Shown here piece by piece: positions 31,935 to 58,071 of a stretch of DNA of 64,000 nucleotides (the stretch's first letter is position 1; each line of letters starts with the position of its first letter). The notes under the pieces were generated by a model. It saw nothing but the letters and a program-made list of their open reading frames with translations. It was not told where the DNA came from and ran no database searches. The position numbers were made by a program, and so were the translations under genes. Source of the stretch: Candidatus Aenigmatarchaeota archaeon (lineage in GTDB: Archaea; Aenigmatarchaeota; Aenigmatarchaeia; QMZP01; QMZT01). Where the stretch lies: positions 448,001 through 512,000 of the forward strand of contig CAVSBQ010000002.1 in assembly GCA_963726265.1 (NCBI GenBank). Reading direction: 5' to 3'.

Positions 31935-34900
31935 ACAAGGATCTGTCAGGGTATTGGTTAACGTGGGCTGAATGCCTCGCCGAAGCTTGGCACTTACACC
32001 CCGTTTCCATCAACCTCGTCGTATACGAGACCTTCCAAGGCGCGCCGATACTCGCGTATCAGTTTGCCCAACGGTTACCTATTTTCAGGAGAGGCTTCAG
32101 GCTTAGATGCTTTCAGCCCTTATCCTCAGTGACGTAGCTACCCGGCAGTGCAGGCACAACCGGTACACCAGAGGTCACAACGCACTGTTCCTTTCGTACT
32201 ATGTGCATTCTCCCCTCAGGTAACCAACACCTTCAGCAGATATAGACCATACTGGCTCGCACCGTATTTAACCCAGCTAGCGTGGCTCTTTAATGAGTGA
32301 ACACCTCCACCCTTGGACGCTGCTGCACGTCCAGGAAGAGCCGAGCCGACGGCGGAGAAGCAACGAGCGCGGTCGATTTGACCTCTCACTTCCCGATATT
32401 TTCATCACCGCGGCTTTCGAAAAAGCCGCGGCTCAATAGCCAACAGGTTATAACCTGCTGCTGTCCTGACAAAAAATTTGATACGCACTAAGGCGTACCA
32501 TCTTCTTGTCCTGACTTCGAGAACGAGAAATGAGTTATGGACTCTCACGCGCCACGACTCCATTACCCCCAAGGTAACTTTTCTGACAGAGCTGGCTCCC
32601 AGCTAATGGAGACACAGCGGATCGCTAGGCCACGCTTTCGCGTTAGGATTCCTCGCCTTGCGGAATCCTATCAGGCCGGCTTTTGCCCTTGCACTCTAAA
32701 TTCCGATTTCTGACCGGAATGAGCCGACCTTAGGGCGCCTCTGATCCTTTATCAGAGGCGTACCGCCCCAGCCAAACTGCCCATCAATTGCTGTCCCCCT
32801 AAAGGTAAGCAATATGTTAACGGTGGGTTGGTGTTACATTGACGCCTTCCCCAAACCCGAAGACTTGGGTGCGATGCTCCCAACTACACTATGCGACCAT
32901 CAACATACCGCAACAACAGACTGCAGTAAAGTTCTATGGGGTCTTCTCGTCCCGCTGAAGGACTCCGGGTTATTCGCCGGACAACTAAGTTCGCTAGGTG
33001 TCAGGTCAAGACAGTGGGGATGTCGTTAAGCCATTCATGCAGGTCGACAATTAATCGACAAGGGATTACGCTACCTTAAGACGGTCAGAGTTACCGCCGC
33101 CGTTTACCGGGGCTTGGCTGGTTTTGGCCAGTTTAACACACCGGCACTGGGCAGGCATCAGGAGCTATACAAAGCGTTTCCACCTAGCAGCCCCCTACGT
33201 TTTTGTTAAACAGTCGCAACCCCCTTGTTACTGAGACCTACTCGTTCTGTCTGAGACAGAGGAGTAGGCACCCCTTATACCGAAGGTACAGGGCCAATTT
33301 GCCGAATTCCTTGACCTGACTTCTCCTAATACACCTTCGCCTTTTCAGCGAGGGGCACCAGTGACGGTTCTCGGTACGGTCATGAAAGATCCATTCAGAT
33401 TCCCTTTTCACCGATTCCAGGAGTCAACCGAACGGACATACGCCCGCTATTTCTGGTTTCGCCTGCTTCTCACCATTACGGTACTCCACAGGTTTCGCCA
33501 GTTAATCACCGAAGTGATCGGCATATCCCAAAATGTCAGGAATCAGACTTGTGTCGCCACACGTACTTCCATGGTGCAGGAATATTAACCTGCTTCCCTT
33601 TCGATAAGTTCCAGTTGGGGCTTGTCTTAGGACCGACTAACCCTCAGATGACGACCATTGCTGAGGAACCCTTGCCCTTTAGGTGGTGGAGTGTCTCACT
33701 CCACTATTGTTGCTACTATCAGCAAGATCCTTGTTCCTGTAAGGTCCATTCCCTCTTACGAAGAAACTTCTGCCCTACCAGGACACCTCTCTACCATAAT
33801 CCTTTCGGAATCTAAGATATCGGTACCAAACTTAGTCCCGTCCATTTTCAAGGCCCTCAACCTAGATAGGTGAGCTATTACGCTTTCTTTGAAGGGTGGC
33901 TGCTTCTAAGCCGACCTCCCTATTGTCTATGGGTGAAGACGCTTTTCATCACTTAGCTTGGATTTAGGGACCTTAATCTTAGGCTGGGTTCTTGCCCTTT
34001 CGGATACTGAGCTTACCCCAGTACCCCCACTCCGGCCTTCTACGGAGGATGGTAGATTCCGAGTTTGACAGTGCAACTGAACCTTTCGGTTCTTGGTTGC
34101 CCAATCAGTATCTATACCCTGCCATCTTCCTCCGGCCAGGCTATGCTGAGGCATATTTCGAGAGGAACCAGCTATTGCTGAACGCGATTAGCATTTCACT
34201 CCTAGCCCCAGGTCACGTGAGCGATTTGAATCTCAGCATCTCTATCGGGCCTCCATCTAGCTTTCGCCAGACTTCACCCTGCCAAGGGCTAGATCGTCCA
34301 GCTTCAGGTCTTACCCCTGTGACTTTAGGCTCTTTCAAACCTGACCGCCTGACGGCACAAAGCCGATGCGCGGTTCTTGCTTTCGCTGCGGGTACTTGAA
34401 TTACCCTCGCCACAGAAATAAACTCCTTGCCGCGTGTTTCCGCACGGGCGACAAAACTCCTGCAAGCAGGAGCCTTGCCTACCTATAATTACATGGTTTC
34501 AGGCTCTTTTCATCTCCGGTTAGAGATACTTTTCATTTTTCCGTCACCGTACTAGTGCGCTATCGGACTCGGGGTGTATTTAGGATTGGGAGTTACTGGC
34601 TCCCGTATTCCCAATGGATTTTCAACCAATGGTACTCTGGATACCCGCTATCAACCTTCTTCCTTGCTCATACGGGGCTATCACCCTCTACGGCAGATCT
34701 TTCCAGATCACTTTTGATTGAGAAGTTAGGCTGAGCACGGGTCCGAACCCCACATCTCTCCTGGCTTTCACCAAGAGATTCGGTTTGTCCTTTTCCCTTT
34801 TCAATCGCCTCTACTAGGGGAATCACGATTGTTTTCTTTTCCGGCCCTTACTAAGATGTTTCAATTTAGGGCGTCACCGATGACCCGAAGGTCAACGACA

Positions 34901-35033
34901 TATGTCAGGAAGTCCCATTAGGAGATCCCGGGTTCAAAGGCTGCTTGCGCCTACCCCGGGCATATCGCAGCTTGCCACGTCCTTCTTCGGCCCCCGAACC
35001 AAACCATCCACCACGTAACGTAGCAGATCCTTT
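31935..35033 (-). rRNA. rrl: 23S rRNA (ends approximate; contains one intron)
   Basis: recognisable P-loop, A-loop, H69, GTPase centre and SRL; flanked by processing stem 31916-31945 / 35024-35053 with perfect BHB (UGAC/GUCA, AAA bulges). Confidence 0.97.
32378..32536 (-). other. 159-nt BHB intron in 23S helix 89 loop (after E. coli 2477)
   Basis: removal restores GAGUCCAU|AUCGAC colinear with E. coli; 11-bp closing stem; bulges AUA and AAA predict the same cut sites; no ORF. Confidence 0.88.
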
Positions 35034-35564
35034 TTGTCAGGACAACTCGCCTATGTTTCATCATCAAGGAACTCAAATGGTGTTCACTTTTTCATAGAAA
35101 GCGAAAGACGCAAGCTCGCGCATGCGTCTGTCTGCCTCCTCAAGTGACTGTCTGAAGAGTCATCATTCCTCTCCAATCCACCCGCCAAAATTTATTGGCG
35201 AGCTTCATATACCGACATGCAGAATTGCATCGCCGCATACCGGTTTCTTTGTAATTTGGTTAACATGAACTAGCTACCAATAGCTTGTTCAGAATAAGAC
35301 AGACATACTCGCGTACGCCACCCTCTGACTGCATGACCTCTTTCCCTGTCACGGATCAAAGGCCAAGTCTCTGAACAGCTTTGGATAGCCATTGTTAGGA
35401 AACGTATTGCATCACTGCAAGTTTCCGTAAGCGTGAGCAACTATTATATTGTCCCGGGACATTTAAATACATTTCTGGGCCAGTTTTCAGTTGCCGTTTC
35501 TTGCTTTCGTTTTCCGCTAATTCCGCTTCAGCGGAATCTTAAGCCTTTTTTTAAAAGGCTTTTA

Positions 35565-35724
35565 TGGACCGAGTGGGAATTCCACGCCCGCCCAAGCCGA
35601 CCGTTGCGGGTTCGTGTTGGGCGAGGTTTTGAACCCACGGCCTCTCGCTTGCAAAGCGAGCGATCTGTGGCGATTGAAGCAGACCTCGTCTGCTTCACCT
35701 TAATTACCGCTGATCTATCGGCCC
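35565..35724 (-). tRNA. tRNA-Ala(TGC) in the 16S-23S spacer with two non-canonical introns (D-loop 35667-35705; T-loop 35579-35627)
   Basis: GGGCCGA/TCGGTCC acceptor with G3:U70, CTCGC TT TGC AA GCGAG anticodon arm, BHB-like motifs at both introns. Confidence 0.92.
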
Positions 35725-35815
35725 ATGCGTTTCGAAGGATGCAGAATCTCATTCTGCATCGGTTTGTTAGATGTGATTTCGCAGGAGATTGTATTGAGAA
35801 AGCGAGATATATATA

Positions 35816-37373
<1,558 letters not shown>

Positions 37374-37524
37374 TAGAAATTGGCAGGTTGTAGCTCCTTT
37401 ATAAATCTCGCTAATTTCTCACAATCTCCTACTTCAAACTTAATTGTTTTCTTGAAATTAAGCTCACATCTTCGCCATAGCTGCCGAGTCTGCGGCATCT
37501 ATGAGCATATATAATATAGAGCGA

Positions 37525-37545
37525 GGTCTTTTTAAACGTTATTGC
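37525..37545 (-). promoter_or_regulatory. putative rRNA operon TATA box
   Basis: minus strand GTTTAAAAA about 160 nt upstream of the 16S 5' end. Confidence 0.5.
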
Positions 37546-37634
37546 CTTCCTTTCGGTCAAAAGCTTTTTCTTAAAAATCGCCAGAACTATTATTTATTAT
37601 AACCAACCAACAATTTAACTAATCACGTGGCTGC

Positions 37635-39092
37635 ATGGAAAAAAAAGACGCCAAAAGGCCGGGGAAGGAGGAGCTGGAGCAGCTGAAAGTCTCGAAGGCC
37701 GGCGATTTTTCCGAGTGGTATAACCAGGTCGTCCAGAAAGCGGGCCTGGCTGACTACGCCCCGATAAGCGGCTGCATGATTATCAGGCCATACGGCTTCG
37801 CCATATGGGAGAAAATACAAAGCTGGTTCGACGAAAGGATAAAGGCAACCGGCGTAGTGAATGCGTATTTCCCGATTTTCATCCCCGAACGCTTCCTGAA
37901 GAAGGAGAGCGAGCACTTCGAGGGCTTCATGCCCGAGGTCGCGTGGGTGGAGAAGAAAGACGCAGGCGAAGAACGCTACGCCCTCCGCCCGACCTCCGAG
38001 ACCATCATGTATGATTCTTACGCGAAGTGGATACGCTCGTGGCGTGACCTTCCCCTTCGCATAAACCAGTGGTGCAACATAATCCGCTGGGAAGTCAAGG
38101 CCACGAGGCTTTTCCTGAGGACCAGGGAATTCCTGTGGCAGGAAGGCCACACCGCGCACGCGACGGAAGAGGAATGCGAAAAAGAAGTCGCGTTGCGAGC
38201 GGAACAGTATAAGGAGCTCATAGAAACGCAGCTGGCCATCCCGGTCGTCATGGGCAAGAAGTCACGAAGCGAAACGTTCGCCGGCGCGGACTACACCATC
38301 GCCCTCGAAGCGCTGATGCCTGACGGACGAGGGCTGCAGATGGCGACGTCGCACAAGCTCGGCCAGCATTTCGCCAAGGTCTTCGGCATAAAGTTCATGG
38401 ACAAGGAAGGCAAGGAGAAGCTTGTGTGGCAGACGTCCTGGGGTCTCACGACGAGAACGATAGGCGCAATAACCATGATGCACGGCGACGACAAAGGTCT
38501 CGTGCTTCCGCCGAAAATCGCGCCCACACAAATCGTCATAGTCCCGATTTACGACAACGAGACGAAAGCGACAGTCATCAGGGAAAGCGAAAAAATCAGG
38601 AAAAAACTGGAAACGCAATTCAGAGTGCACCTCGACGACAGGGATTCCTATTCGCCGGGGTGGAAGTTCAACGAATGGGAGCTCAAGGGCGTGCCGCTGC
38701 GCATAGAGATCGGCCCGCGCGACATAAAGAGCAGGCAGGCCGTCCTCGTGAGACGCGACACTCGGGAGAAGAAGCCGGTCAAGGAAAGCGAGCTCGAAGA
38801 TGCGGCCGGAAAGACGCTCGACCTCATGCAGGAGCACCTTTACAGGAAAGCGAAGGAATTCCTGGCGGACAACATAAAGGACGCGAGGAGCTTCGACGAG
38901 CTGGAAAAGCTGATAGCGAACAAAAAGATGGTCCGCGCCCACTGGTGCGGCTATGCCGAATGCGAAGAGAAGGCGAAGGAAAAAACCACCGCCACAATAA
39001 GATGCATAGAGAACGAGCATGCGAAAGAGGGAAAATGCGCCGTCTGCGGCAAGCCGGCGAAAGCGACCGTCTATTTCGCGAAGGCGTACTGA
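37635..39092 (+). CDS. proS: proline--tRNA ligase (archaeal/eukaryal type)
   Basis: LRPTSET, FLRTREFLWQEGHT, QTSWG, HGDDKGL, C-terminal FAKAY. Confidence 0.97.
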   Translation: MEKKDAKRPGKEELEQLKVSKAGDFSEWYNQVVQKAGLADYAPISGCMIIRPYGFAIWEKIQSWFDERIKATGVVNAYFPIFIPERFLKKESEHFEGFMPEVAWVEKKDAGEERYALRPTSETIMYDSYAKWIRSWRDLPLRINQWCNIIRWEVKATRLFLRTREFLWQEGHTAHATEEECEKEVALRAEQYKELIETQLAIPVVMGKKSRSETFAGADYTIALEALMPDGRGLQMATSHKLGQHFAKVFGIKFMDKEGKEKLVWQTSWGLTTRTIGAITMMHGDDKGLVLPPKIAPTQIVIVPIYDNETKATVIRESEKIRKKLETQFRVHLDDRDSYSPGWKFNEWELKGVPLRIEIGPRDIKSRQAVLVRRDTREKKPVKESELEDAAGKTLDLMQEHLYRKAKEFLADNIKDARSFDELEKLIANKKMVRAHWCGYAECEEKAKEKTTATIRCIENEHAKEGKCAVCGKPAKATVYFAKAY

Positions 39093-39143
39093 ATGGCTTC
39101 AGAACGAGGTTTCGTTTTAGGATAAAGCTTTATCCTAAAAACT

Positions 39144-40323
39144 TTAGCTCCAGCCTCTTCTGTTGGCGCTTGCCTTTCGGCCGAATGCGAATTTTATAAG
39201 AAGCGGCGAGACCGCGTTTATGAGGACGAAAGATGCGATGAGGCCAAGGTAGAAGACGGGACTGAGCTTCGTCACTGCAATCGCCACTATGACAGCCGTC
39301 ATCTCGGAAAGCGTCACGAAGCCTGACGTGAGCTTGAGCGCATCGGCCATGCTGTAGCGGAAAACCTTGAACGCCGCCAGCGCAGTGACGACTTTTATGC
39401 CGACTATTATGCCCATTATCATCAGTATCGGTATTATCTGGTCGGCGGCGGCAAGGAGGTTTATCGAAAGCCCGACCGAGGCGAAGAATATGGGTATGAA
39501 GAAGTTCTCCCCTATCTCCTTGACCTTCCTCTTTATTACAGGATACTGGGCGCTCCTGCACAAGCAGCATCCCGGCGATGAATACCCCCAGAACCGAAGC
39601 GAGGTTAAGGCCCTGAGTTATGCTGCCCAGAGCAAACGCCAGCAGCATAGTGAAGGCGAATAAAGCGTCTTCGATTCCGTACTTCTGTATTGAGCCGGTA
39701 AGCCTCGTGACTGTCTTGAAGCCCACGCGGCTCATGAGTACGAAAAGCCCGATGACGAGAAGGATGGTCGTGAATACCGGCCACAGCGTTATTTCCGAGC
39801 CCGTCATGATGTTGGCTATGATGGCAACGCTGACTATCGCGACGACTTCGTCGACGACCTCCAGCCCTATGAGCGTCTGGCCCTCATGCGTGCTCAGCTG
39901 CTTGGTGTCGGAAAGCGTGCGCGCGACTATCGCGGTGCTGGCTATCGCTATGACCGTCCCCATCACGACCGTAGTGTATATGTCCCAGCCGAAAACCAGG
40001 CTCGCGCCGTAGACGGCCACTATGACAAAGATGACCCTGGTAAGCTCTATCCAGCTGAAGCGCTCTGCGCGTCCTTCGAGGATTTTCCAGTCTATGCTCA
40101 GGCTCACGAGAAGTATCATGAACAGGAGGCCGAGCTCAGAAATGGTCGTTATGAGGCTCGTGGGAGCCACCAGCGCCAGCAGCGAAGGTCCTAGTATGAT
40201 GCCCGCCACCAGCTCGCCTATCACGCTGGGCTGCTTGAGCTTGCTGAATAAAATGCCGCATACCTTTGCCCCGAAAAGCAGCAGCGCCAAACCAAGCAGA
40301 GGGTCAAGTATCATATTTTCCAT
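39144..40323 (-). CDS. cation:proton antiporter (CPA2), frameshifted near 39560
   Basis: PSVIGELVAGIILGP in first frame, FFIPIFFASVGL in second frame. Confidence 0.82.
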
Positions 40324-40513
40324 TCACCGGGCAATTTGCCGATTATTATATTACAACCCAGGCAGCCAAACAAGAACTGTTCTGGATATTTTAAGTTAAC
40401 CCCGCGCCCTCTTAAATAGCTTTAAGCTTTTTTGAAAATCAGCGGAAAAACGTAAAATGTAATTTTTAATAATCTATATACTATCTAATTATTACATCCG
40501 GGAATCAAAACAT

Positions 40514-40647
40514 GCGGAGGTAACAAATCGGCTATGTGGCCGGCTGCAGCGGCGAAGCCAGTGGCTTAAAGCACGATGGGCGCAGATGAAATCTGCGTCA
40601 TTCGCAGCAGATACCGGCATAGGGGGGTTCGACTCCCTCCCTCCGCT
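40514..40647 (+). tRNA. tRNA-Cys(GCA) with 63-nt intron at 37/38 (40550-40612)
   Basis: GCGGAGG/CCTCCGC acceptor with U73, GCCGG/CCGGC anticodon stem, perfect BHB CTGC/GCAG with bulges AGC and ATA. Confidence 0.92.
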
Positions 40648-40685
40648 TTTAATCTTTTAAACGTTTGATAAATTTGTGATAAGCT

Positions 40686-41558
40686 GTGGAAGTTGAAATA
40701 TTATACGCAATCGTGGCTTCTGTGATATGGGGCGGCATGTTCGCCGTTTCAAAGAACGTCAAGACAAACCAGATATTCCAGAACGTTTACATAACAGCAG
40801 GCGGCTTCGCGACGGCTCTGATAGTTTCTGTAATGATGCGACCCATATTAACAACCGAAACTTTATTGGCCGGCCTGGCTTCCGGCGTGCTTTGGGCATG
40901 CGCCAGTTTGTCATTCCTTTATGCGATGAAATACATCGGGATAGGAAGAGCCCTTCCTATGTCGGTTTCAGGTCAGATACTGGTATCATTCTTATGGGGC
41001 GCGCTGCTTTTTGGTGAAATAATTTACTCGGGCATGCTGAACATACTGATGGCTTTGGCTGCGATATTTTTGATATGCGCCAGCGCTTTTATCGTCAGCA
41101 GAACCAAAGAAAATGTAAATGCGAAAAATTTCAAGACGGGCATTTTAGCTGCCTTTTTATCTTCTTTGTTCTGGGGAACACAGTTCGTGCCTGTCAAGCT
41201 TGTTGCAGCTGACGCAGTTGCCGTCATGGCACCCCTTGCGGCAGGCATGCTGCTGACGGCCTCAATCACCGCTTTCGTGAAATTCGGCAAACGTATCAAC
41301 CTTTCATACAGCGGCAAAGAGAGAAATGTTCTAAACGGCTTACTTTGGGCGGTTGGTAATTATCTGGCCCTTTTTGCAATAGCCGCAATAGGCATGGCCA
41401 GGGGTTACGTGCTGACGCAGATAGGCGCCATAATCATACCTCCCCTGCTCGGCGTGTTCTATTTCAGGGAAATCAGGGAAAGAAGAAATTATCTGCTGCT
41501 TTTCCTGGCAACGATAATAATAATGGCAGGCACAGTGCTGATGACTTTTGCAAAATAA
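40686..41558 (+). CDS. DMT superfamily transporter (GlcU/GRP sugar-uptake-like)
   Basis: about 10 TM, SGVLW, IGIGRALP.S; GTG start. Confidence 0.75.
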   Translation: MEVEILYAIVASVIWGGMFAVSKNVKTNQIFQNVYITAGGFATALIVSVMMRPILTTETLLAGLASGVLWACASLSFLYAMKYIGIGRALPMSVSGQILVSFLWGALLFGEIIYSGMLNILMALAAIFLICASAFIVSRTKENVNAKNFKTGILAAFLSSLFWGTQFVPVKLVAADAVAVMAPLAAGMLLTASITAFVKFGKRINLSYSGKERNVLNGLLWAVGNYLALFAIAAIGMARGYVLTQIGAIIIPPLLGVFYFREIRERRNYLLLFLATIIIMAGTVLMTFAK

Positions 41559-41562
41559 GCGG

Positions 41563-42885: not shown

Positions 42886-42944
42886 TATAATATTTTGTCA
42901 AGCCTGCTAAAATATTTTTATTGTTCTGGCGCGAAATAAGTCGT

Positions 42945-43706
42945 ATGAGCCTGGAAATATGGTTATACGCACTTGCGAGCGTTCTGGTCGTGAGCGCGAT
43001 TTCGCTTATAGGCATAGTTACGATATCGGTCAAGGAAGAAAGGCTCGCGAAAATCCTGCTCTATTTGGTCGGCTTCTCTGCAGGCGGCCTGCTCGGCGGA
43101 GCTTTCATACACCTGCTGCCGGAAGCGGTCGCAGAATCCGGCTTTGGCCTGACGGTTTCCGTTTCCGTTTTGTCAGGCATGATAGTGTTTTTCATCATGG
43201 AGAAGGCCGTCCACTGGCGCCACTGCCACGTGCCGACCAGCGAAAAGCATCCGCACCCGTTCGCCTACATGAACCTTGTCGGCGACAGCGTGCACAACTT
43301 CATAGACGGCCTGATAATAGGCGCGGGCTACATGGCATCCCTGCCGATCGGGATAGTGACGACCTTCGCCGTCATACTCCACGAAATACCGCAGGAAATC
43401 GGCGACTTCGGCGTACTGCTCCATGGCGGCTTCACGCGAAGGAAAGCTCTTTATTTGAATTTCATGACTGCCCTGACCGCCGTCGCGGGAACGATAGTCG
43501 CCATAGCCGCAAGCTATTTCGTGGGGAACCTGACTGCCTTCCTGGTGCCTTTCGCGGCGGGCGGTTTCATATACATCGCCTCGTCCGACCTCATACCCGA
43601 GCTGCACAAAGATGCATACGAAACTAAGAAGTCGTTTGTCCAGCTTCTGACTATCATTCTTGGCATAGCGGTTATATTCGCGCTCAAGTTTCTTGTCGCC
43701 GAATAA
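42945..43706 (+). CDS. ZIP family zinc transporter
   Basis: HLLPEA, HWRHCH, HNFIDG, HEIPQEIGDF. Confidence 0.92.
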   Translation: MSLEIWLYALASVLVVSAISLIGIVTISVKEERLAKILLYLVGFSAGGLLGGAFIHLLPEAVAESGFGLTVSVSVLSGMIVFFIMEKAVHWRHCHVPTSEKHPHPFAYMNLVGDSVHNFIDGLIIGAGYMASLPIGIVTTFAVILHEIPQEIGDFGVLLHGGFTRRKALYLNFMTALTAVAGTIVAIAASYFVGNLTAFLVPFAAGGFIYIASSDLIPELHKDAYETKKSFVQLLTIILGIAVIFALKFLVAE

Positions 43707-43715
43707 ACCTAAAAA

Positions 43716-46002: not shown

Positions 46003-46004
46003 AA

Positions 46005-46685: not shown

Positions 46686-46717
46686 GCCAGTCGCCCAAAA
46701 TCAGACTGCGCTCCCGC

Positions 46718-47908: not shown

Positions 47909-47988
47909 CAGCCAGCTTTGCAGAGCGAATTAACAGTAGAATAATACTACAAACATACTTAAAAGGTTTTAAATTGGCCACGTCTTGA

Positions 47989-49454
<1,466 letters not shown>

Positions 49455-49464
49455 GAAGAGAGGT

Positions 49465-50376
49465 ATGAACCTTGCAACAGACCTCTGCGGCATAAAGCTG
49501 AAAAACCCCACCGTTCTCGCTTCAGGCATCCTTGGCGTTTCGCGCCAGCTGCTTTCCGAAATCATAAAGAACGGCGCCGGCGCTGTCACGATAAAATCGG
49601 TTTCTTTCGAAGCGAGGGAAGGCCACAAGAACCCGACCGTCATCGCCTTCGAAGCGGGCATGATGAACGCGGTCGGCTATTCGAATCCCGGCGCCGGCGA
49701 AGCGAGAAAGGAATTCGCCGGCCTGAAGGCACTGGGCGCGCCCGTCTTCGCCAGCATAATCGGCCAGGAGCCGGAGGATTTCGCAAAGGTCGCTGATGAA
49801 CTAAAGGGCCTGGAATTCTCCGCGCTCGAAGTCCCGCTTTCCTGCCCGCATACGCCAGGCTTCGGCACGCTCGCCGGCCAGGACGCACCCGAGAAGACGT
49901 ACGAGATAACGAAGGCCGTCGTGAAGCATACCAGACTTCCGGTGTTCGTCAAGCTCTCGCCCATCACGAAGAACATAGGCGAGGTCGCGAAAGCCGCGGA
50001 GAAAGCGGGAGCCTCGGCCATAACCGCGGTGAACACCATGGGACCGGGCATGATAATAAACATCGATGCAAAGAAACCGGTGCTGGGCTTCAAAATAGGC
50101 GGGATTTCAGGGCCTGCGCTAAAACCCGTCGCGGTCCGCTGCGTCTATGACATTTACGAAAGCGTCAAAATCCCGATAATCGGGACGGGTGGCATCCTCA
50201 CCGGCCGCGACGCCCTTGAGATGATGATGGCGGGCGCGGGCGCGATCGGAGTCGGCTCCGCAATCCATTACAGGGGCATGGACGTCTTCAAAAAAATCTG
50301 TTCTGAAATGAGCGAGTGGATGGACAAAAATAATTATCGGAGTTTTGACAAGATAATAGGTGCTGCGCATGGGTGA
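49465..50376 (+). CDS. pyrD: dihydroorotate dehydrogenase family 1B catalytic subunit
   Basis: KNP..LASG, SCPH, VKLSP, NT, GG.SG.A.KP. Confidence 0.95.
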   Translation: MNLATDLCGIKLKNPTVLASGILGVSRQLLSEIIKNGAGAVTIKSVSFEAREGHKNPTVIAFEAGMMNAVGYSNPGAGEARKEFAGLKALGAPVFASIIGQEPEDFAKVADELKGLEFSALEVPLSCPHTPGFGTLAGQDAPEKTYEITKAVVKHTRLPVFVKLSPITKNIGEVAKAAEKAGASAITAVNTMGPGMIINIDAKKPVLGFKIGGISGPALKPVAVRCVYDIYESVKIPIIGTGGILTGRDALEMMMAGAGAIGVGSAIHYRGMDVFKKICSEMSEWMDKNNYRSFDKIIGAAHG

Positions 50377-51160
50377 AAAGGCAGAGCTTCCGGAGATGGC
50401 AAAATTCACGAGGGTCGTGCATGAAAACCCTTATGTCAAAACTTTTTTCTTTGACAGGAAAATCGATGCCAAGCCCGGGCAGTTCGTGATGGTCTGGATA
50501 CCCGGCCTTGACGAAAAGCCGTTCTCCCTTTCCTACGCCGGAAAAGAAACCGCGATAACGGTCGAGGAGAAGGGCAGGTTTACGAAAGCGCTTTTCATGA
50601 TGAAGGCCGGCGACAGGATAGGCATCCGCGGCCCTTATGGGAACGGATTTTCGCTGCGTTCGAACGCGTGCGTAGTTGCCGGCGGCTGCGGGGTCGCTCC
50701 GCTTGCCATATTGATAGAGCGTCTGAAAAAGCCGTTCGTCATCCAGGGAGCACGCTCGAAGGACAGGCTGATTTTCAGCGGGCGCTTCAGAAAAGCGAGC
50801 ATTGCCACGGACGACGGCTCGGCCGGAGCGAAGGGCTTCGTCACCGACGTCCTGGAAAGCGAGCTGAAGAAAAGGAAATTCGCCGTAGTGCACACGTGCG
50901 GCCCTGAAATCATGATGAAGCGCGTCTTCGAGCTCTGCGAGCGTTACGGAATCGAGGTCGAAGCCAGCCTGGAACGCTACATGAAATGCGGCTTCGGGGT
51001 GTGCGGCCAGTGCGAAGCCGGTGGCCTGCGCGTATGCAAGGACGGGCCCGTTTTCTCATCGTCACAGCTCAGAAAGCTCAAGGACTTCGGCAATTTCGCG
51101 AGGCTGAAATCCGGCCAGAAAGTCGCCGTGAGCGAATACGCAAAATGGAGATGCGCATGA
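50369..51160 (+). CDS. pyrK: dihydroorotate dehydrogenase electron transfer subunit
   Basis: PGQFVM, RGPYGNGF, CGPE.MM, MKCGFGVCGQC. Confidence 0.95.
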   Translation: MGEKAELPEMAKFTRVVHENPYVKTFFFDRKIDAKPGQFVMVWIPGLDEKPFSLSYAGKETAITVEEKGRFTKALFMMKAGDRIGIRGPYGNGFSLRSNACVVAGGCGVAPLAILIERLKKPFVIQGARSKDRLIFSGRFRKASIATDDGSAGAKGFVTDVLESELKKRKFAVVHTCGPEIMMKRVFELCERYGIEVEASLERYMKCGFGVCGQCEAGGLRVCKDGPVFSSSQLRKLKDFGNFARLKSGQKVAVSEYAKWRCA

Positions 51161-52374
51161 ACCCCAACGCCGTGAGCCTGCTCGTGAAAAACGGCATGGT
51201 TTACGTGAACGGCAGGCTGCTGAGGAAAAATATTCTTGTTGAAAACGGGAAAATAGCCAAGCTATTGCCCGCATCGAGGACGATCGCGGCTGACAAAACC
51301 ATAAACGCAAAAGGCATGGTGGTGATTCCGGGAGTCATAGACCCGCACGTCCACTTCAGGGAGCCGGGCATGACGCACAAGGAGGATTTTGAAACGGGCA
51401 GCTTCGCCGCCGCTGCCGGCGGAGTGACCAGCTTCCTGGACATGCCGAACACCAAACCGCCCACGCTGACGCAGCAGCTGCTCAGCGAAAAAATCGCGGC
51501 TGCCGCGAAAAAATCCGTCGTGAACTTCGGCTTCCATTTCGGCTCTTCGCTGGAGAATCTCGAGGACATACGGAAGGCGTCAGGCTTCGCGGCCGTGGCG
51601 TCGGTAAAGATTTTCATGAACGCCTCGACGGGCAACATGCTCATAGAGGACGAAAACGCCATAAAAAACATAATGGAGTCCGCCCGCATAACCGCCATAC
51701 ACGCCGAAGGCGAAAGCGCGAAGAAGGCGATAGACATCGCCCATTCGCTAGGCAGGAAATTCTATATGTGCCACGTGAGCCTGCAGAGCGAGCTGGAATA
51801 CATAAAGCGCAACCGCAAGGAAAACGTCTTCGCCGAGGTCACGCCGCACCATCTGTTCCTGACCGAAAATGATGAAAACAAGTTCGTGAAAATGAAGCCG
51901 TCGCTCAAAAGCGATAAGGACAGGGCATCGCTCTGGGCCGCGCTGGCTGACGGGACCATCGACGCCGTCGGCAGTGACCACGCGCCGCACACGCTCGATG
52001 AGAAAGCAGCAGGCGACGTTTACGGAGTGCCCGGAATCGAGACTCGGCTGCCGCTCATGCTGGACGCCTTCAACCGGCGGCGTATCGAATTCAGGAGGCT
52101 GGTCGAGCTCATGTGCGAAAACCCGGCAAGGATTTTCAGGCTGAAAGGGAAGGGTTTCATAAAGGAAGGCAGCGATGCCGACCTGACCATAATAGACACG
52201 AAGATGGTGAGGCGGGTGAGGAACGACGAACTGTTCACGAAATGCGGCTGGTCTCCGTTCGATGGTTACGAGCTGCGCGGATGGCCCGTCCAGACTGTTG
52301 TGAATGGAAACGTCGTGTTTGAAAATGGCGAGGTTTGCGCTTCGGTTAAGGGGAAGGTGGTGGAACATGACTGA
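51157..52374 (+). CDS. pyrC: dihydroorotase
   Basis: DPHVHFREPG, DMPNT.P, EVTPHHL, SDHAPH. Confidence 0.95.
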   Translation: MNPNAVSLLVKNGMVYVNGRLLRKNILVENGKIAKLLPASRTIAADKTINAKGMVVIPGVIDPHVHFREPGMTHKEDFETGSFAAAAGGVTSFLDMPNTKPPTLTQQLLSEKIAAAAKKSVVNFGFHFGSSLENLEDIRKASGFAAVASVKIFMNASTGNMLIEDENAIKNIMESARITAIHAEGESAKKAIDIAHSLGRKFYMCHVSLQSELEYIKRNRKENVFAEVTPHHLFLTENDENKFVKMKPSLKSDKDRASLWAALADGTIDAVGSDHAPHTLDEKAAGDVYGVPGIETRLPLMLDAFNRRRIEFRRLVELMCENPARIFRLKGKGFIKEGSDADLTIIDTKMVRRVRNDELFTKCGWSPFDGYELRGWPVQTVVNGNVVFENGEVCASVKGKVVEHD

Positions 52375-53014
52375 AATTCCAAAGGATGTCGCAAAGATAT
52401 TGCTTGAGATAAAGGCGGTTACGCTGAGCCCGCAGAAGCCTTACAGATACGCATCAGGCATGCTGAGCCCGATATACTGCGACAACCGCCTGCTGATGTC
52501 ATATCCGGACAAGAGAGCGAAGATAACCGACTATTTCGTAAGAGTCGTGCAAGAGCGCAGGCTCGATTTCGACGTCGTGGCAGGCATCGCCTCTTCGGGC
52601 ATTCCCCATGCCGCATGGCTCGCCGAGAAGCTGGGCAAGCCGATGATATACATCCGCAAGGAAGCTAAGGAGCACGGCAAGGAAAACCTTATTGAAGGGA
52701 AGCTCGAGAAAGGCGCGAAGGTCGTCATAGTGGAGGACCTCGTATCAACGGGCGGCTCAAGCATCGCAGGAGTCGAAGCCGTCCGCAGGCAGGGCGGCGT
52801 GGTCGAACAGTGTCTTGCGATTTTCACATACGAGATGCAGAAGGCAAAAGACGCCTTCAACCAGGCGGACTGCGAGCTCATACCCCTGAGCGATTTCACC
52901 ACGCTGATAAAGCTCGCGGGCGCAATGGAATACATAGGCCAAGACGAAATTGAAAAGGCGCTTGAGTGGAACAAGGATCCCCCGAACTGGGGCAGGAAGA
53001 TGGGCTTCGAATGA
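52367..53014 (+). CDS. pyrE: orotate phosphoribosyltransferase
   Basis: ASG..SPIYCDNR, VEDLVSTGGS. Confidence 0.95.
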   Translation: MTEIPKDVAKILLEIKAVTLSPQKPYRYASGMLSPIYCDNRLLMSYPDKRAKITDYFVRVVQERRLDFDVVAGIASSGIPHAAWLAEKLGKPMIYIRKEAKEHGKENLIEGKLEKGAKVVIVEDLVSTGGSSIAGVEAVRRQGGVVEQCLAIFTYEMQKAKDAFNQADCELIPLSDFTTLIKLAGAMEYIGQDEIEKALEWNKDPPNWGRKMGFE

Positions 53015-53028
53015 AAACGAGAGGCGAT

Positions 53029-53730
53029 ATGATGAAAATCATAAAAATGAGCAGGAGTATAATACCCGCATGCGACCTTCCCACGCTGGAAGCGCTCGAC
53101 AGGCTGGTGAAGGAGACGTGCGATGTGAAGGGGGTGGGCGGTTACAAGATCGGCTTCGAACTGGTCATACCCTTCGGCATGAAAAAGGTCATCGAAACTA
53201 TCAGAAAACACACCCGTCTTCCCATAATCTATGACCACCAGAAGGCCGGGACGGACATTCCCGACACCGGCGTGAAGTTCATGAAGGCTTGCGGCGGAGT
53301 CGACGCTGTCATACTGTTCCCCCAAGCCGGGCCTGAAACTGAAAGGAAATGGATAGAGGCGGCGCGCAACGAGGGCCTGGGAGTCATAATCGGCGGCGAG
53401 ATGACGCACCCGCAATACCTGGAAAAGGACGGCGGCTTCATCCTGAACAGCGCGCCGAAGGCGATTTATGAAATAGCCGCTTCGCTGGGCGTGAGCGATT
53501 TTGTCGTCCCGGGAAACAAGCCGGAGCGCATCGCCGAATACAAAAAGATGCTAGAAGCGAAAGGCATAAAACCGGTTTTCTATTCGCCCGGCATGATAAC
53601 CCAGGGCGGCGACCTCAGCGAGGCTGCGGCTGCGGCCGGAAGCGAATGGCACGCCATAATAGGCCGCGCGCTGTACCAGGCCGGGAACATGAGACAGAAG
53701 GCCGAAGAACTCGCGCTCAAAATCATATAA
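53029..53730 (+). CDS. pyrF: orotidine 5'-phosphate decarboxylase
   Basis: ACD, YKIG, YDHQKAGTDIP.T, IIGRA.Y; last gene of pyr operon. Confidence 0.88.
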   Translation: MMKIIKMSRSIIPACDLPTLEALDRLVKETCDVKGVGGYKIGFELVIPFGMKKVIETIRKHTRLPIIYDHQKAGTDIPDTGVKFMKACGGVDAVILFPQAGPETERKWIEAARNEGLGVIIGGEMTHPQYLEKDGGFILNSAPKAIYEIAASLGVSDFVVPGNKPERIAEYKKMLEAKGIKPVFYSPGMITQGGDLSEAAAAAGSEWHAIIGRALYQAGNMRQKAEELALKII

Positions 53731-53838
53731 CTCCGCGGCCGCAAGCGTTCTTGGGAAAGCAGCGGCGTTCTTAATATTTAAATATTCATTTATATAATTG
53801 TCTTTACATATCATAGTGTTATTGTTGCACCGGTGTAA

Positions 53839-54414
53839 ATGATGGCAGCGGAAAAAGAGCAAAGGAAAGAGAAGACGGAGAAGAAGGGAGGGCACAGAGA
53901 GCAGAAGGAACAGACGGAAGCTGCCAGACCGCCTGAGAAGAGGTTGCTGAACGTCGTCAGGCTCGGCGAAACGAACCTCGACGGCAACAGAAAAGTGTCA
54001 TCCGCGCTGCTCGGCATAGACGGCATATCATTTTCCATGTCCAGGATCATAGCGGACATTTCAAAGCTCGGTGAAAAGAAGGTTTCCGAGCTTTCTGACG
54101 AGGAAATCCACAAGCTTGAAGACATCATAAACCACCCGGACAAACACCATATCCCTTCATGGATGTACAACAGGAGAAAGGGCCCGGAAAAGGGCGAAAC
54201 CGTGCATCTCACGACCTCGCAACTTGAATTCAGCCAGAAGATGGACATAGACAGGATGAAAAAAACGAGGACGTATAAGGGCGTAAGGCACATGCTGGGC
54301 CAGCCCGTCCGCGGCCAGAGGACAAGAAGCTCCTTCAGGACCGGCGGAACCGTGGGTGTGCAGAGGAAGGCCGCAAAAGCCGCGCGGGCTGCTACCAGCA
54401 AGGGCGAGAAGTGA
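53839..54414 (+). CDS. rps13: 30S ribosomal protein S13
   Basis: IPSWMYNRR, YKG.RH..G.PVRGQRTRS. Confidence 0.96.
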   Translation: MMAAEKEQRKEKTEKKGGHREQKEQTEAARPPEKRLLNVVRLGETNLDGNRKVSSALLGIDGISFSMSRIIADISKLGEKKVSELSDEEIHKLEDIINHPDKHHIPSWMYNRRKGPEKGETVHLTTSQLEFSQKMDIDRMKKTRTYKGVRHMLGQPVRGQRTRSSFRTGGTVGVQRKAAKAARAATSKGEK

Positions 54415-54419
54415 TTGCC

Positions 54420-54881
54420 ATGAGAAGAATCAGAAAAAAGATGAAGAGGCCGCGAGCGCCGTGGGATGCGGTGAGACTCGAGGAAGAAGGCAAGATGCTG
54501 AGGGAATTCGGCCTGAGAAGGAAGAGGGAGATATGGAGCGCCGAGGCAATCGTGCGCAGCTTCAGGCGAAGGGCAAGGAATCTCATCGCCATGAAGGACG
54601 AGAAAAAAATGAAAATCCTTCTCGACAAGCTGACTGAAATCGGCCTCATCCAGAAAGGCCAGGGCCTTGACCAGGTCCTCCAGCTCAAGACGAACAACAT
54701 CCTCGAGAGGAGGCTTCAGACCATTGTTTACAAAAAGGGACACGCTTCGTCCATAAAGGATGCGAGGCAGAAAATCGTCCACGGCCATGTTTATCTGGGC
54801 GGCAGGAGAACGACATTCCCGTCATTCATAGTTTCTGCGGCGCAGGAATCAGTGATAACGGTAAAGGGTGGAAATAAATGA
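54420..54881 (+). CDS. rps4: 30S ribosomal protein S4
   Basis: [25 protein letters not shown]. Confidence 0.96.
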
Positions 54882-55267
54882 AAGACGAAAAATGGGGCAT
54901 CTGCCACATATATTCTTCGAGCAACAACACGATTATCCACATCACCGACCTTACCGGCTCGGAAACGATAGCCAGGTGTTCCGGCGGCATGATAACCAGC
55001 AGGGACAAGGACAAGGGCTCGCCGTTCCCCGCGATGAAGGCAGCGAAAAAAGTCGCGGAAGAGGCGATAAGCAAGGGTCTTGTCGGCGTCCATCTGAAGG
55101 TCCGCGCGCAGGGCGGCCACAAGAAGAAGATACCGGGCGCAGGCGCGCAGCCCGCGATTCGTGCGCTCGTAAGGGCCGGGCTCAGGATCGGAAGGATTGA
55201 AGACGCGACGCCAGTCCCGCATGACACGACGAGGAAACCCGGAGGCCGCGGAGGAAGGCGCGTCTAA
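54878..55267 (+). CDS. rps11: 30S ribosomal protein S11
   Basis: [29 protein letters not shown]. Confidence 0.97.
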
Positions 55268-55284
55268 CGCGAATGTGATGTTCC

Positions 55285-56283
55285 ATGGCAAGAGGTCACA
55301 AACCACGAGCGGGTTCGAGAGCATTCTGGCCGAAGAAGCGGGCGAAAAGGATATACCCGAGATTAAAGCACTCGCCGCAGCTTGACATAGTTGCGAAAAA
55401 AGTAAGCGGCACCAGGCCGATCGAATTCGCGGGCTACAAGGCGGGCATGACCCACGTCATCTTCAACGACACGCGAAAGAAAAGCGTCAGCCATGGCATG
55501 GACGTTTCTAAAGCGGTCTCCGTTATCGAATGCCCGCCGCTTTTCGTTTTCGGCATAAAGCTTTACACGAGGGATTCGAATGGCTACGCAACCATGGGCA
55601 TGATATGGTCAAAGGACCTGAAAAGGGATATCGTGAGGAAGCTTGACGTGCCTAAAAAGACGAAGGCGTCGGTTCAGGATTTCGAAGGCAGGCTTGCGCA
55701 GGTCGCGGATGTCCGCGTTCTTGTCCAGACGCAACCGAGGGATACTGGCTTAGGAAAGAAAAAGCCCGAGGTCTTCGAGCTCGACCTTTCCGGTTCGACC
55801 GGGGAAAAATGGCAATACGCGAAGGAGAAGCTCGGCAAGGAAATCGACGTGCGCGACGTTTTCTCCGAAGGTGAGTATGTCGACGTCAAGGGAGTGACGA
55901 AAGGCAAAGGCTACCAGGGCCCTGTCAAGAGGTTCGGCATAAAAATCAGGTCGCGCAAAAACAAGCTCAAGATGCGCCACCTGGGAACCATGGGTCCTGT
56001 CACCCCGAGCAGGGTTCTGCCAGGCGCGGTCGCTCAGGCGGGCCAGATGGGCTTCCAGACCAGAACCGAGTTCAACAAGCGCCTGGTGAAGATAGGCAGC
56101 GACGGCGTAAAAATCGATGGTGGCTTCATCAATTACGGCGAGGTCAGGAAGAATTATGTTCTCATCGAGGGCTCTGTTCCCGGCGCAAGGAAGAGGCTGA
56201 TTTTCTTCAGGAAGTCGTTCAGAAGAATGGACGAGAGAGATCCGACGGAACTGAAATCAATACACACCGGCTCGCAGCAGTAA
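55285..56283 (+). CDS. rpl3: 50S ribosomal protein L3
   Basis: FAGYKAGMTH, VTKGKG.QGPVKRFG, QAGQMGF..RTE.NK. Confidence 0.97.
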   Translation: MARGHKPRAGSRAFWPKKRAKRIYPRLKHSPQLDIVAKKVSGTRPIEFAGYKAGMTHVIFNDTRKKSVSHGMDVSKAVSVIECPPLFVFGIKLYTRDSNGYATMGMIWSKDLKRDIVRKLDVPKKTKASVQDFEGRLAQVADVRVLVQTQPRDTGLGKKKPEVFELDLSGSTGEKWQYAKEKLGKEIDVRDVFSEGEYVDVKGVTKGKGYQGPVKRFGIKIRSRKNKLKMRHLGTMGPVTPSRVLPGAVAQAGQMGFQTRTEFNKRLVKIGSDGVKIDGGFINYGEVRKNYVLIEGSVPGARKRLIFFRKSFRRMDERDPTELKSIHTGSQQ

Positions 56284-56331
56284 GGCACAGCAACTGCTAT
56301 TTATTTAATCAGGCTAGTTCAATTCATTCTT

Positions 56332-56844
56332 ATGGATTTGTGGTATTGCGTAACGCTGGCCGGGCAGCCGGAGGTGTGGATGGCATCGACCCTCGTGGCT
56401 GCCTTGATATACGCCTACCTTAGAAAAGGCCTTGGCACAGAAAGCAGGAAAAGGGCCAAGGCCGTTGTTCTGATTTACATAATAGGCATATGGTTGTCGC
56501 TTTCTCTGGTATTCATACTCAAAAACGCCGTGCAGACCGAAAGGCCATGCATACCCTGCAATTCGCTTGCGGAGAACTGCAATCCCTATTGCGGCACCGA
56601 CAATTCCTTCCCGTCAGGCCATGCAGCGGCGATATTCGCGGCCTTCACGGCGCTTTACGCCGGGACGCGCAAGAAATGGCTCATCCCGCTTTTCATACTG
56701 CCGGTCCTCGTTTCATATTCCAGATACGCTCTTGGCGTGCATTACGCAAGCGATATAATCGCCGGCGCATTCATAGGCATCGCCGGCCCGTGCGTGGCAT
56801 TCCTGTTAGTCAGGCAATACAATCTGGACAAAAAGCCGAAATAA
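56332..56844 (+). CDS. PAP2 family phosphatase
   Basis: K......RP, SFPSGH, SR..LGVHY.SD. Confidence 0.9.
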   Translation: MDLWYCVTLAGQPEVWMASTLVAALIYAYLRKGLGTESRKRAKAVVLIYIIGIWLSLSLVFILKNAVQTERPCIPCNSLAENCNPYCGTDNSFPSGHAAAIFAAFTALYAGTRKKWLIPLFILPVLVSYSRYALGVHYASDIIAGAFIGIAGPCVAFLLVRQYNLDKKPK

Positions 56845-56853
56845 TCAAAGAGC

Positions 56854-58071
56854 CTAAACCTTGTATCTCAGAATCCCGCCTATGCCGCCCATTTCTTTGA
56901 GCTGGCTGCCTTCTTTCGTGTCGGACGATATCATCTCGACGTTGGTGCTCATTTCTTCAGCCATCTTCACTATCTCGTCCGTCAGGTCTTTCTCGGCCAG
57001 GATTTCGTAAAGCTCGCTGCACTTCGGGCATTTCAGGCTCTCGAGCTTGTCCCTCGCCATCACGGCGTCGCTCTCCTCTCCGCATTTGGGGCACTTGACC
57101 CTCGCCTTCACCCAGTCGAGCTTGTCGGAAACCAGCAGGATTTCCATGGTGCCTGCCTTTAGCGCGTCGATAATCTCCTTGAGCCCGTATACCGCGAGGC
57201 CGGAATCCTTGCCGAGCTCGTTGAAAAAGCGCATGAGCAGCTTCTTCTCCTTCATCACGCTCGCTTCCTTGAGCGCTTCCTCGGACCTGTTGACCGCTTC
57301 CTCGAGGCCGTATTCCCCCATGTATGATATGTCGACGACGCCGATGACCTTTTTCTGGAAGTCGTATCTCAGAAACCCGCCTGAAGCGAATGTATCTTTC
57401 ACCGGGCCCGGCCCTCCCACTATGATGCCTATCAGGTCTTTCTGCTCATCGAACTGTTTGGAAGCGATGTCGCCGACCTTCTTCATGAAGTCGTTGAGCA
57501 GGCCCTCGCGCACGCGCGCATATCTGGCTTGGGACCACCCACCTGCCTCTGTTTTTCCTGGCACAAGAGAGTCCATATGCTTCAGCGGCCTGACCTTCTT
57601 GCCGTGCAATATCCCTACGTCCGCCTCGGACTTGTCGATTATCACGATGCCGAATATCTCGCGCTCGCGTATCATCTCCTTCAGCGGGTCGAGCACGAAT
57701 TTCTGGTCGCACCAGTAAAGCCGCTGTTTCATTGGTTCCGGCGGCTCAAGGGCGAATATCTCGACATCCGAAACTCCTTCGCGCTCAGAGATGTTTCCGG
57801 AAAAAACGACCAGGCCGTTCGGAGGCGTTTGCTTATACAGTTTCAGGTGCTGGGTTATGCGCTCGAGCGCGGACATGACGTTCTTGCGCACGGACTTCGA
57901 CTTGATGTTTTGGGCGGTCGACTTCTCGTTGCTTATCTGCTCGACCACTTTAAAGAGGTTGAAGCCCGCAGGAATGTAAACGGAAACGAGCTCCGTATGG
58001 CGACCCTTGAACTTGTCCAGTTCTTCGACTAAGTCTTTCAATCTTCTCTTCCGTATGTCCTCATGCGTCAT
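56854..58071 (-). CDS. prf1: archaeal peptide chain release factor aRF1 with GGW replacing GGQ
   Basis: GRHTELVSVYIP, NIKS, YWCDQKF, Zn-ribbon in domain 3, C-terminal GGIGGILRY. Confidence 0.95.
   Translation of the reverse strand: MTHEDIRKRRLKDLVEELDKFKGRHTELVSVYIPAGFNLFKVVEQISNEKSTAQNIKSKSVRKNVMSALERITQHLKLYKQTPPNGLVVFSGNISEREGVSDVEIFALEPPEPMKQRLYWCDQKFVLDPLKEMIREREIFGIVIIDKSEADVGILHGKKVRPLKHMDSLVPGKTEAGGWSQARYARVREGLLNDFMKKVGDIASKQFDEQKDLIGIIVGGPGPVKDTFASGGFLRYDFQKKVIGVVDISYMGEYGLEEAVNRSEEALKEASVMKEKKLLMRFFNELGKDSGLAVYGLKEIIDALKAGTMEILLVSDKLDWVKARVKCPKCGEESDAVMARDKLESLKCPKCSELYEILAEKDLTDEIVKMAEEMSTNVEMISSDTKEGSQLKEMGGIGGILRYKV

Follow-up and report, generated by a model that had tools for sequence, protein, structure and literature searches.

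A Gly-Gly-Trp release factor and a divergent peptidyl transferase centre encoded on one contig of an Aenigmarchaeota genome

The stretch of DNA analysed here, called the window throughout, comprises 64,000 nucleotides (G000:C2:448001-512000) of a 1.13-Mb archaeal genome that is assembled in 4 contigs and is 88% complete. It carries the genes for 23S rRNA, for the archaeal release factor aRF1 and for the ribosomal protein uL3, all of which lie on one 1.1-Mb contig, with the reading frames intact. A first-pass annotation had described four deviations in this window, in the peptidyl transferase centre (PTC) of 23S rRNA, in the catalytic loop of aRF1 (GGW in place of GGQ), in uL3 and in the sarcin-ricin loop, and had interpreted them as one co-evolved unit of a DPANN lineage. 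All four deviations were found at their coordinates, the start assigned to the unit (32189) lying just beside the sarcin-ricin change G2661A, and the DPANN assignment was borne out by a homologue search, in which the named relatives of the window's aRF1 were metagenome-assembled genomes (MAGs) of Candidatus Aenigmatarchaeota (Aenigmarchaeota below). The comparisons reported here support a narrower pattern better than a four-part block: the loss of the release-factor glutamine is nested within lineages with U2452/G2453 in their 23S rRNA and is accompanied by loss of the methyltransferase Mtq2.

The aRF1 gene occupies 56854..58080 on the minus strand and encodes the sole class-I release factor of the genome. 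The protein contained the Pfam domains eRF1_1, eRF1_2 and eRF1_3 and scored 474 bits with NCBIfam TIGR03676 (cut-off 234.7), whereas its score with the pelota model was 91 bits, below the cut-off of 177.65. The only other eRF1-like gene in the genome was Pelota (243 bits, pelota equivalog), and a domain search of the genome detected no bacterial release-factor domain (PF00472). NIKS at residue 58 and YWCDQKF (YxCxxxF) at residue 122, the stop-codon recognition motifs, were intact. The catalytic loop, encoded by the codons GGT GGG TGG TCC CAA (57529..57543, minus strand), reads G-G-W-S-Q at residues 180-184 in place of the G-G-Q-S-A of solved aRF1/eRF1 chains, and its tryptophan aligned to the glutamine of GGQS in 4af1_A and 3j5y_A. 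The protein thus lacks the GGQ that characterizes the aRF1/eRF1 family and is an aRF1 by orthology, as a variant. Both glycines and the downstream S-x-x-R-[YF]-x-R around the changed residue were invariant.

The 23S rRNA gene (31934..35035, minus strand) matched RF02540 over its full length (2499 bits, model positions 1-2987), was covered by RNA contigs and is the only copy in the genome. Variants were called against the Rfam RF02540 consensus, and the numbering was fixed on E. coli rrlH. At the A-site cleft (32561..32566, minus strand), the consensus GGGAUAACaG is replaced by GGGGUAAUGG, so that positions 2448-2453 read GUAAUG and comprise the changes A2448G, C2452U and A2453G. Positions 2497-2506 (32349..32358, minus strand) read UCUCCGCCGU, compared with the consensus ACcUCGAUGU, owing to A2497U, C2499U, U2500C, A2503C and U2504C. 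Position 2055 (32949..32949, minus strand) is C; A is the base there in the RF02540 consensus and in the remaining families of the phylum. In the A loop (helix 92; 32297..32308, minus strand), UGUUC is retained, and the closing pair C2551-G2557 has become G/A. The sarcin-ricin tetraloop (32192..32195, minus strand) is GAAA for GAGA, the loop reading AGUACGAAAGG with G2661A at 32193. Taken over the inner shell of the PTC and the GAGA loop, consensus letters were not matched at 2452, 2453, 2497, 2499, 2500, 2503, 2504 and 2661, and A2451, G2505, U2506, G2553, U2585 and A2602 were unchanged. A further candidate, A2600C, was rejected as a PTC deviation because it pairs with U2593G in helix 93 and is compensated.

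The terminal loop of helix 89 is interrupted by a 159-nt intron (32377..32535, minus strand), which is spliced out of the mature rRNA according to the RNA contigs. As seen in metatranscriptome contigs X7, X9 and X10, which come from three studies, position 32376 is joined to 32536 and the RNA depth inside the insert is zero; on the DNA side, contig X1 extends into it. In relatives that lack the insert, the sequence is GAGAGTCCATA|TCGACC, identical to the spliced form. The RNA contigs showed no alternative letter at 32349-32358, 32561-32566 or 32193. Since these contigs splice the intron and carry the variant letters, the variant rRNA is transcribed and processed. Together with the conservation of the variants across the order to which the genome belongs, this agrees with the earlier view that the deviations do not reflect decay. 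The insert with its flanks was strongly structured (-91.7 kcal/mol over 220 nt), a bulge-helix-bulge motif not being resolved in this one fold. Presumed introns were also seen within the PTC of relatives (e.g. L049/G029, L053/G035, L071, L086, L098), located after A2450 or after U2452, and two further insertion sites occur between 2512 and 2600 in relatives' 23S rRNA; some 23S genes are therefore 4-6 kb long.

The uL3 gene (55285..56283, plus strand) was identified with Pfam Ribosomal_L3 and TIGR03626 (L3_arch; 361 bits, cut-off 308.7). Its PTC-facing loop is GPVTPSRVLPGAV (55993..56031, plus strand), compared with GPWHPARVM-WTV in Thermococcus, and the tip is GPVTP (55993..56007), as opposed to GPWHP in T. 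kodakarensis and in a second chain of Thermococcales type. None of the Aenigmarchaeota sampled had a W-H tip, the tip varying by family, and W-H is absent from two solved archaeal ribosomes as well (9e6q, GPQAP; 9nri, GAFNP). Because W-H is missing throughout the sampled phylum and in these two structures, the tip is a weak character that does not define the uL3 family, and uL3 was dropped from the set of coupled characters.

To place the remaining characters, 301 Aenigmarchaeota genomes were scanned with a degenerate 23S pattern, 56 23S fragments were retrieved around the matches, and the 23S states of 53 genomes were tabulated. Within the genome's own order, 23S rRNA was read in 23 genomes and aRF1 in 41; outside it, aRF1 and uL3 were read in 30 genomes from 15 families. 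One fragment (L109, G207) was not read and hence lies outside the 23S counts, and two bacterial-looking, apparently canonical fragments (L097 in G203, L102 in G111) were excluded from them. A canonical archaeal 23S in the bin G036 (L037, G036:C42) was treated as a contaminant because it diverges strongly from its relatives (about 71-73% identity) and because G036 has a second 23S, L059, with the states of the order; L037 was kept only as an outgroup. Foreign 23S sequences were thus present in several MAG bins (G036, G203 and G111), and a fragment in G292 (G292:C21, L092) resembles another family, so rRNA states derived from bins need checking.

The GGW loop was present in 39 of the 41 aRF1 sequences of the order, the other two genomes (G038 and G029) having GGQ. 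Among the 30 genomes from other families, GGQ was found in 17. The third loop residue was glutamine in families f7, f12, f14, f17, f21-f24, f30 and f32; tryptophan in f11 and f20, as in the own order; methionine in f13, f16 and f29; and phenylalanine in f26. The residue two positions downstream was glutamine in 39 of 43 factors without the catalytic glutamine ("non-Q" below) versus 2 of 33 GGQ factors. The best 120 homologues of the window's aRF1 in a large protein collection comprised 119 with GGW, one of them with an intein directly after the motif, and one with GGQ. When 150 representatives of 50%-identity clusters were compared, 113 could be aligned: 89 had GGQ, 12 GGW, three GGF, three GGM, two GGE and one GGA, and three were gapped. 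Cluster look-ups for the further GGW, GGF, GGE and GGA representatives yielded no lineage, the lone name returned ([Eubacterium] cellulosolvens, for GGE) being uninformative.

Many aRF1 genes of Aenigmarchaeota and Iainarchaeota contain inteins exactly after the third loop residue (GGW|C, GGQ|C, GGM|C, GGF|C). Examples are found at G008:C49:29579-32317, G009:C4:15822-18554, G033:C28:15015-17762 and G029:C16:86611-89313 and in the proteins P0110 and P0123. The intein-bearing reading frames are 500-1450 aa long; the window's aRF1 is intein-free.

The rRNA characters differed in phylogenetic depth. Within the order, UCUCCGCC was present in 22 of 23 23S sequences, and G029 had CCUCCGCC, which differs only at 2497 (C; CCUC); UAAUG and GAAA were found in the order wherever these positions were readable. 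C2504 together with C or U at 2055 was confined to the own order. U2452/G2453 was found throughout the order and in most of the phylum, canonical C2452/A2453 being seen in G071 (f17) and G195 (f24). At 2503, a C or U was present in 53/53 tabulated genomes, and the GAAA sarcin-ricin loop was present in all 45 readable 23S sequences of the phylum, GGQ lineages included; this loop is canonical in Iainarchaeota and Methanocellales. The GGQ genomes (the 17 outside the order, G038 and G029) likewise had a pyrimidine at 2503 and GAAA wherever the 23S rRNA was readable. The A loop also varies elsewhere in the phylum, reading AGUUC in f14 (U2552A; L103-L107) and GGUUU, GGGUCC, UGUCC or UGCCC in other families, with variant loci beyond f14 at L072, L078, L079 and L091.

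These distributions indicate that the four characters are nested at different depths and do not form a single co-evolved block. Three of the traits (G2661A, a C or U at 2503 and a uL3 tip devoid of W-H) are older, extend across the phylum and are not tied to the change in the release factor. The strict four-way coupling proposed in the first-pass annotation fails by the test that the annotation itself had named, because a non-canonical PTC commonly co-occurs with GGQ (17 of 30 genomes outside the order, G038 and G029). The converse does not hold either: the GGW clade of Iainarchaeota has A2503 and GAGA in its one genome with a 23S rRNA. The suggestion of a lineage-specific alternative solution to peptide transfer and release can be retained in so far as a lineage-specific, functional alternative is concerned; it takes the form of a nested series, and the sarcin-ricin loop stands apart from what happened to the release factor.

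Two trees were used to follow the loss of glutamine. In the 23S tree, which was built from the 3' 1.3 kb and rooted on the contaminating canonical archaeal copy, the own order (support 99) was separate from a second clade (97) that united f11 with the f13 group and joined GGQ families (88). In the aRF1 tree, rooted on six GGQ factors from other archaea, the own order was sister to a GGQ clade (97). Both topologies imply more than one loss of glutamine. A further case was found in Iainarchaeota, where the GGW representative P0180 is a protein of a Candidatus Iainarchaeum MAG. Of 31 Iainarchaeota genomes, five had GGWSQ[RK]RFER and 21 had GGQ, four were unreadable since an intein splits the gene, and one gave no match. 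The only genome of this GGW clade with a 23S rRNA carried GGGGGUAAUGG, the same as in the window, with canonical states at 2503 (A), 2504 and the GAGA loop. In G322 and G323, which encode the GGQ aRF1 closest to the GGW query from Iainarchaeota, the 23S rRNA already had UAAUGG. Replacement of the glutamine by W, M or F took place in several lineages of Aenigmarchaeota, and Iainarchaeota acquired W separately.

The loss of glutamine was associated with the base at 2452. U2452 was present in 30 of 31 non-Q genomes in which this base was readable, whereas GGQ genomes were divided between U (14) and C (11). A second association concerned Mtq2, which was scored with the TIGR00537 cut-off. No Mtq2 above the cut-off was detected in the window's own genome, the best match (23.6 bits) lying in a gene of the rRNA adenine dimethylase family (RrnaAD). 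Among 48 Aenigmarchaeota genomes, Mtq2 was above the cut-off in 15 of 19 with GGQ, including G038 of the own order, and in 0 of 29 without glutamine; among Iainarchaeota, the corresponding numbers were 17/21 for GGQ and 0/5 for GGW. Matches below the cut-off were seen in G029 (79 bits, with NPPY) and in G024 (83 bits, with NLPF, like a paralogue in G122). When all 301 genomes of the phylum were scanned, 106 were positive, and only one of the 140 from non-Q families was among them, with a borderline partial match (G064). Finally, aRF1 motifs were predicted blind from the Mtq2 scan: GGQ for G172 and G187, in which Mtq2 was present, and for G127, from the genus of G029; and a non-Q residue for G290, G204 and family f20, which had no Mtq2. 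The predictions were correct in all nine readable cases (9/9).

According to PMC6144793, Mtq2 methylates archaeal aRF1, its orthologues occur in all archaea, and GGQ is a universally conserved motif. Judging from the genomes compared here, neither universality holds in these clades. Full-text searches found no paper on GGW, GGM or GGF forms of aRF1, on loss of archaeal Mtq2 or on PTC variation in DPANN archaea, subscription journals being outside their reach. We regard the repeated replacement of the "universal" glutamine, with loss of the methyltransferase, on a ribosome with U2452/G2453 as a new and robust result.

Bacterial factors in which the glutamine is replaced retain much of their hydrolytic activity in vitro. 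In a cryo-electron microscopy study of release factor 2 (RF2; PMC5799190), the N5-methyl group stabilises the glutamine by making van der Waals contacts with U2506, A2451 and nucleotide 2452, while the main-chain amide and side-chain carbonyl hold a water. The lineage combines PTC substitutions on the A-site side, which are fixed and expressed, with a hydrophobic residue in place of the GGQ glutamine, and we consider it probable that this residue hard-wires the packing otherwise provided by methylation. The factor would still catalyse peptide release, with the two glycines and the backbone amide of the third position carrying out the chemistry. The W, M or F side chain may pack on nucleotides 2451, 2452 and 2506, making the contacts that N5-methylation strengthens for glutamine; by building in this effect, the hydrophobic residue would make Mtq2 dispensable. 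The earlier change to U2452/G2453 may have been the permissive step that shaped the pocket for a larger side chain, and the glutamine at +2 could have taken over the positioning of water. A more general statement, namely that GGQ is not universal and that whole DPANN orders terminate translation with GG-W/M/F-S-Q, a loop that two or more phyla would have acquired by convergence, in every case once U2452/G2453 was in place and with the methyltransferase lost afterwards, is put forward tentatively, its chances being slightly below even.

Several observations weigh against this interpretation. All genomes used are MAGs of 71-98% completeness. A single origin for every non-Q aRF1 in Aenigmarchaeota was not rejected by an approximately unbiased (AU) test (p = 0.215), and the aRF1 and 23S trees conflict on the placement of f11 and the f13 group. 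The link to the rRNA is one-way, since U2452/G2453 is common with GGQ and three genomes (G038, G029 and G172) combine the full PTC of the own order with GGQ; no rRNA change among the 23S sequences compared tracks the switch from Q to non-Q itself. The sole exception to U2452 among non-Q genomes, the GGM genome G292 (G2452/A2453), was kept in the counts, although its 23S fragment, which is most like those of f17/f24 and unlike its own family f13, suggests that it may be mis-binned. GGQ without detectable Mtq2 occurred in G071, G145 and G197 and in four Iainarchaeota, so the loss of Mtq2 is not confined to non-Q genomes. The independent-pairs test of motif against Mtq2 had only two pairs within Aenigmarchaeota and therefore could not reach significance; the independent transitions are few, and related genomes are not independent. 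In addition, Iainarchaeota likewise show wide variation at PTC positions 2447-2453 and 2497-2506, and positions 2499-2505 read CGCUAUC in the single Micrarchaeota genome read (G305).

This last variation fits a general loosening of constraint in DPANN archaea, whereby drift in small populations with reduced genomes would fix slightly harmful changes in the PTC and in aRF1, to be compensated later, with no functional coupling between them. The differences at the same PTC positions among the families of Aenigmarchaeota, the changes of the uL3 tip and the A loop from family to family and the absence of Mtq2 from some GGQ genomes point in the same direction. We nevertheless consider loosening unlikely, as the variant states are strictly conserved within each clade, the helix changes are compensated, C2452 was found in 0 of 31 readable non-Q genomes, and the replacement read in Aenigmarchaeota and Iainarchaeota was always W, M or F, with W in two phyla next to the same glutamine at +2. 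A role for selection by inhibitors is less likely again. Under this explanation, which takes up the driver suggested in the first-pass annotation, the rRNA changes would confer resistance to inhibitors of the A-site cleft and to ribotoxins acting on the sarcin-ricin loop, the release factor having adapted afterwards. C2452U is an anisomycin-resistance change, and G2661 lies beside the target sites of ricin and sarcin. Haloarchaeal mutants at 2453, 2500 and 2504 resist linezolid, anisomycin and chloramphenicol, according to Nissley et al. (bioRxiv 10.1101/2024.11.12.623245), and the nested pattern does place the rRNA changes before that of the factor. But the window and the comparisons gave no hint of an inhibitor, of a producing organism or of a setting of resistance, the variety of states that families show at 2497-2500 is unlike one resistance solution, and the GGW genome of Iainarchaeota with a 23S rRNA retains the canonical loop and A2503.

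It is also conceivable that the GGW factor recognises stop codons without hydrolysis and that the peptide is freed by other means, for instance by a peptidyl-tRNA hydrolase that acts away from the ribosome once the subunits have been split. In the literature the glutamine is held to be essential and conserved universally (PMC6144793), and nothing encoded in the window attests the activity of the factor. A dead loop would be expected to tolerate any residue instead of W, M or F alone, and would hardly keep its glycines and S-x-x-R-[YF]-x-R invariant; moreover, the genome encodes no other eRF1-like protein beyond Pelota and no bacterial-type release domain. Hence we regard this explanation as very improbable. 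The probability of an artefact, be it a chimeric contig, a pseudogene copy or a contaminant, is negligible even though foreign 23S sequences do occur in MAG bins (G036, G203, G111). The genes are single-copy and intact on one 1.1-Mb contig, 40 relatives show the same states, and the RNA is expressed and spliced. Chimerism, which had been named as a possible refutation, does not apply, the relatives sharing all traits, and chance or error is excluded, identical letters having been read in dozens of relatives assembled independently and in RNA contigs.

A hydrophobic residue acting on an altered A-site cleft, the explanation preferred here, can be compared with known systems. Divergent PTCs have been described by Nissley et al. 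(bioRxiv 10.1101/2024.11.12.623245) in Thermoprotei and Methanomethylicia, together with the ribosome structure of Pyrobaculum calidifontis; that paper reports that E. coli does not tolerate A2453C, U2500C and U2504C, and that haloarchaeal mutants do, gaining drug resistance. As in those archaea, the window's 23S rRNA varies within 2447-2453 and 2500-2504, C2504 and C2500 being shared. The A loop is altered in both, at 2554/2555 in theirs. In their system, too, uL3 near the PTC was proposed to set the tolerated variation, and the changed positions overlap drug-resistance sites. Unlike their hyperthermophilic Thermoproteota, the window belongs to a mesophile-type DPANN MAG outside Thermoprotei and Methanomethylicia, and where they report C2453, it has U2452/G2453, a pyrimidine at 2503 and G2661A. 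The terms DPANN, Aenigm-, Iainarchaeota, 2503, GGQ and release factor do not occur in the available main text of that paper, a statement that does not extend to its supplements, which possibly list more clades; an earlier paper by the same group likewise makes no mention of DPANN, 2503, GGQ or release factors. The nucleotides changed in the window are also those of PTC mutants made in the laboratory in haloarchaea and E. coli (2452, 2453, 2500, 2504), C2452U among them. Those mutations are single, carry a growth cost and in E. coli inactivate the ribosome or do not support growth, whereas in the window several occur together and are fixed across the order.

With regard to the protein, the window's aRF1 resembles canonical aRF1/eRF1, the substrate of Mtq2-Trm112, in family, domain order, NIKS, YxCxxxF, GG, S-x-x-R-[FY]-x-R and its role as the sole class-I factor, and differs in having W for the glutamine (M or F in sister lineages) and in the missing Mtq2. 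It shares with Pelota/Dom34, an eRF1 paralogue without GGQ, an eRF1 fold lacking the catalytic glutamine; unlike Pelota, it scores as aRF1 and retains the stop-codon motifs, and the genome has a separate Pelota.

Textbook accounts treat the Gly-Gly-Gln loop and its methylation as invariant across the three domains of life, and the catalytic role of the glutamine side chain has been debated for two decades. The sole release factor of many archaeal genomes, with W, M or F on a defined rRNA background, amounts to a natural experiment that bears on the real role of the glutamine and its methyl group and on how the active sites of ribosomes and release factors could be altered by engineering. It offers a testable pairing, in which GGW or GGQ factors are combined with U2452/G2453 or canonical ribosomes. 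If the reading is correct, the GG-W/M/F-S-Q loop would be a natural alternative solution to peptide release. The data also indicate that PTC divergence, so far reported for hyperthermophilic Thermoproteota, is widespread in DPANN archaea.

The neighbourhood of these genes had several other features. The 16S rRNA gene lies at 35816..37373 on the minus strand (rRNA profile search), and no tRNA was found in the 16S-23S spacer (35036..35815), the sole tRNA gene in the window being tRNA-Gln(CUG) at 60970..61042. The uL3 gene, which usually belongs to a uL3-uL4-uL23-uL2 operon, stands apart from the ribosomal-protein operon and near aRF1, with a PAP2 phosphatase gene (56332..56844) between the two. 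The distance between aRF1 and uL3 was about 0.5-1.3 kb in at least 10 further relatives (G001-G004, G008-G010, G015 and G019 of f1, and G228 of f16), so that the proximity extends to much of family f1. Directly upstream of uL3, two reading frames of 325 and 177 aa on the minus strand (53811..55324) gave no Pfam match. Further along, three consecutive PQQ/beta-propeller frames of 450, 327 and 169 aa (58144..60825, minus strand) with a low G+C content (0.43) may represent one split or duplicated surface-protein gene. Finally, a row of pyrimidine-synthesis genes at 48085..53730 encodes the catalytic and regulatory chains of aspartate carbamoyltransferase, dihydroorotate dehydrogenase with its Fe-S subunit, a dihydroorotase-like amidohydrolase, a phosphoribosyltransferase and orotidine monophosphate (OMP) decarboxylase, in a group that is usually thought to be without such pathways.

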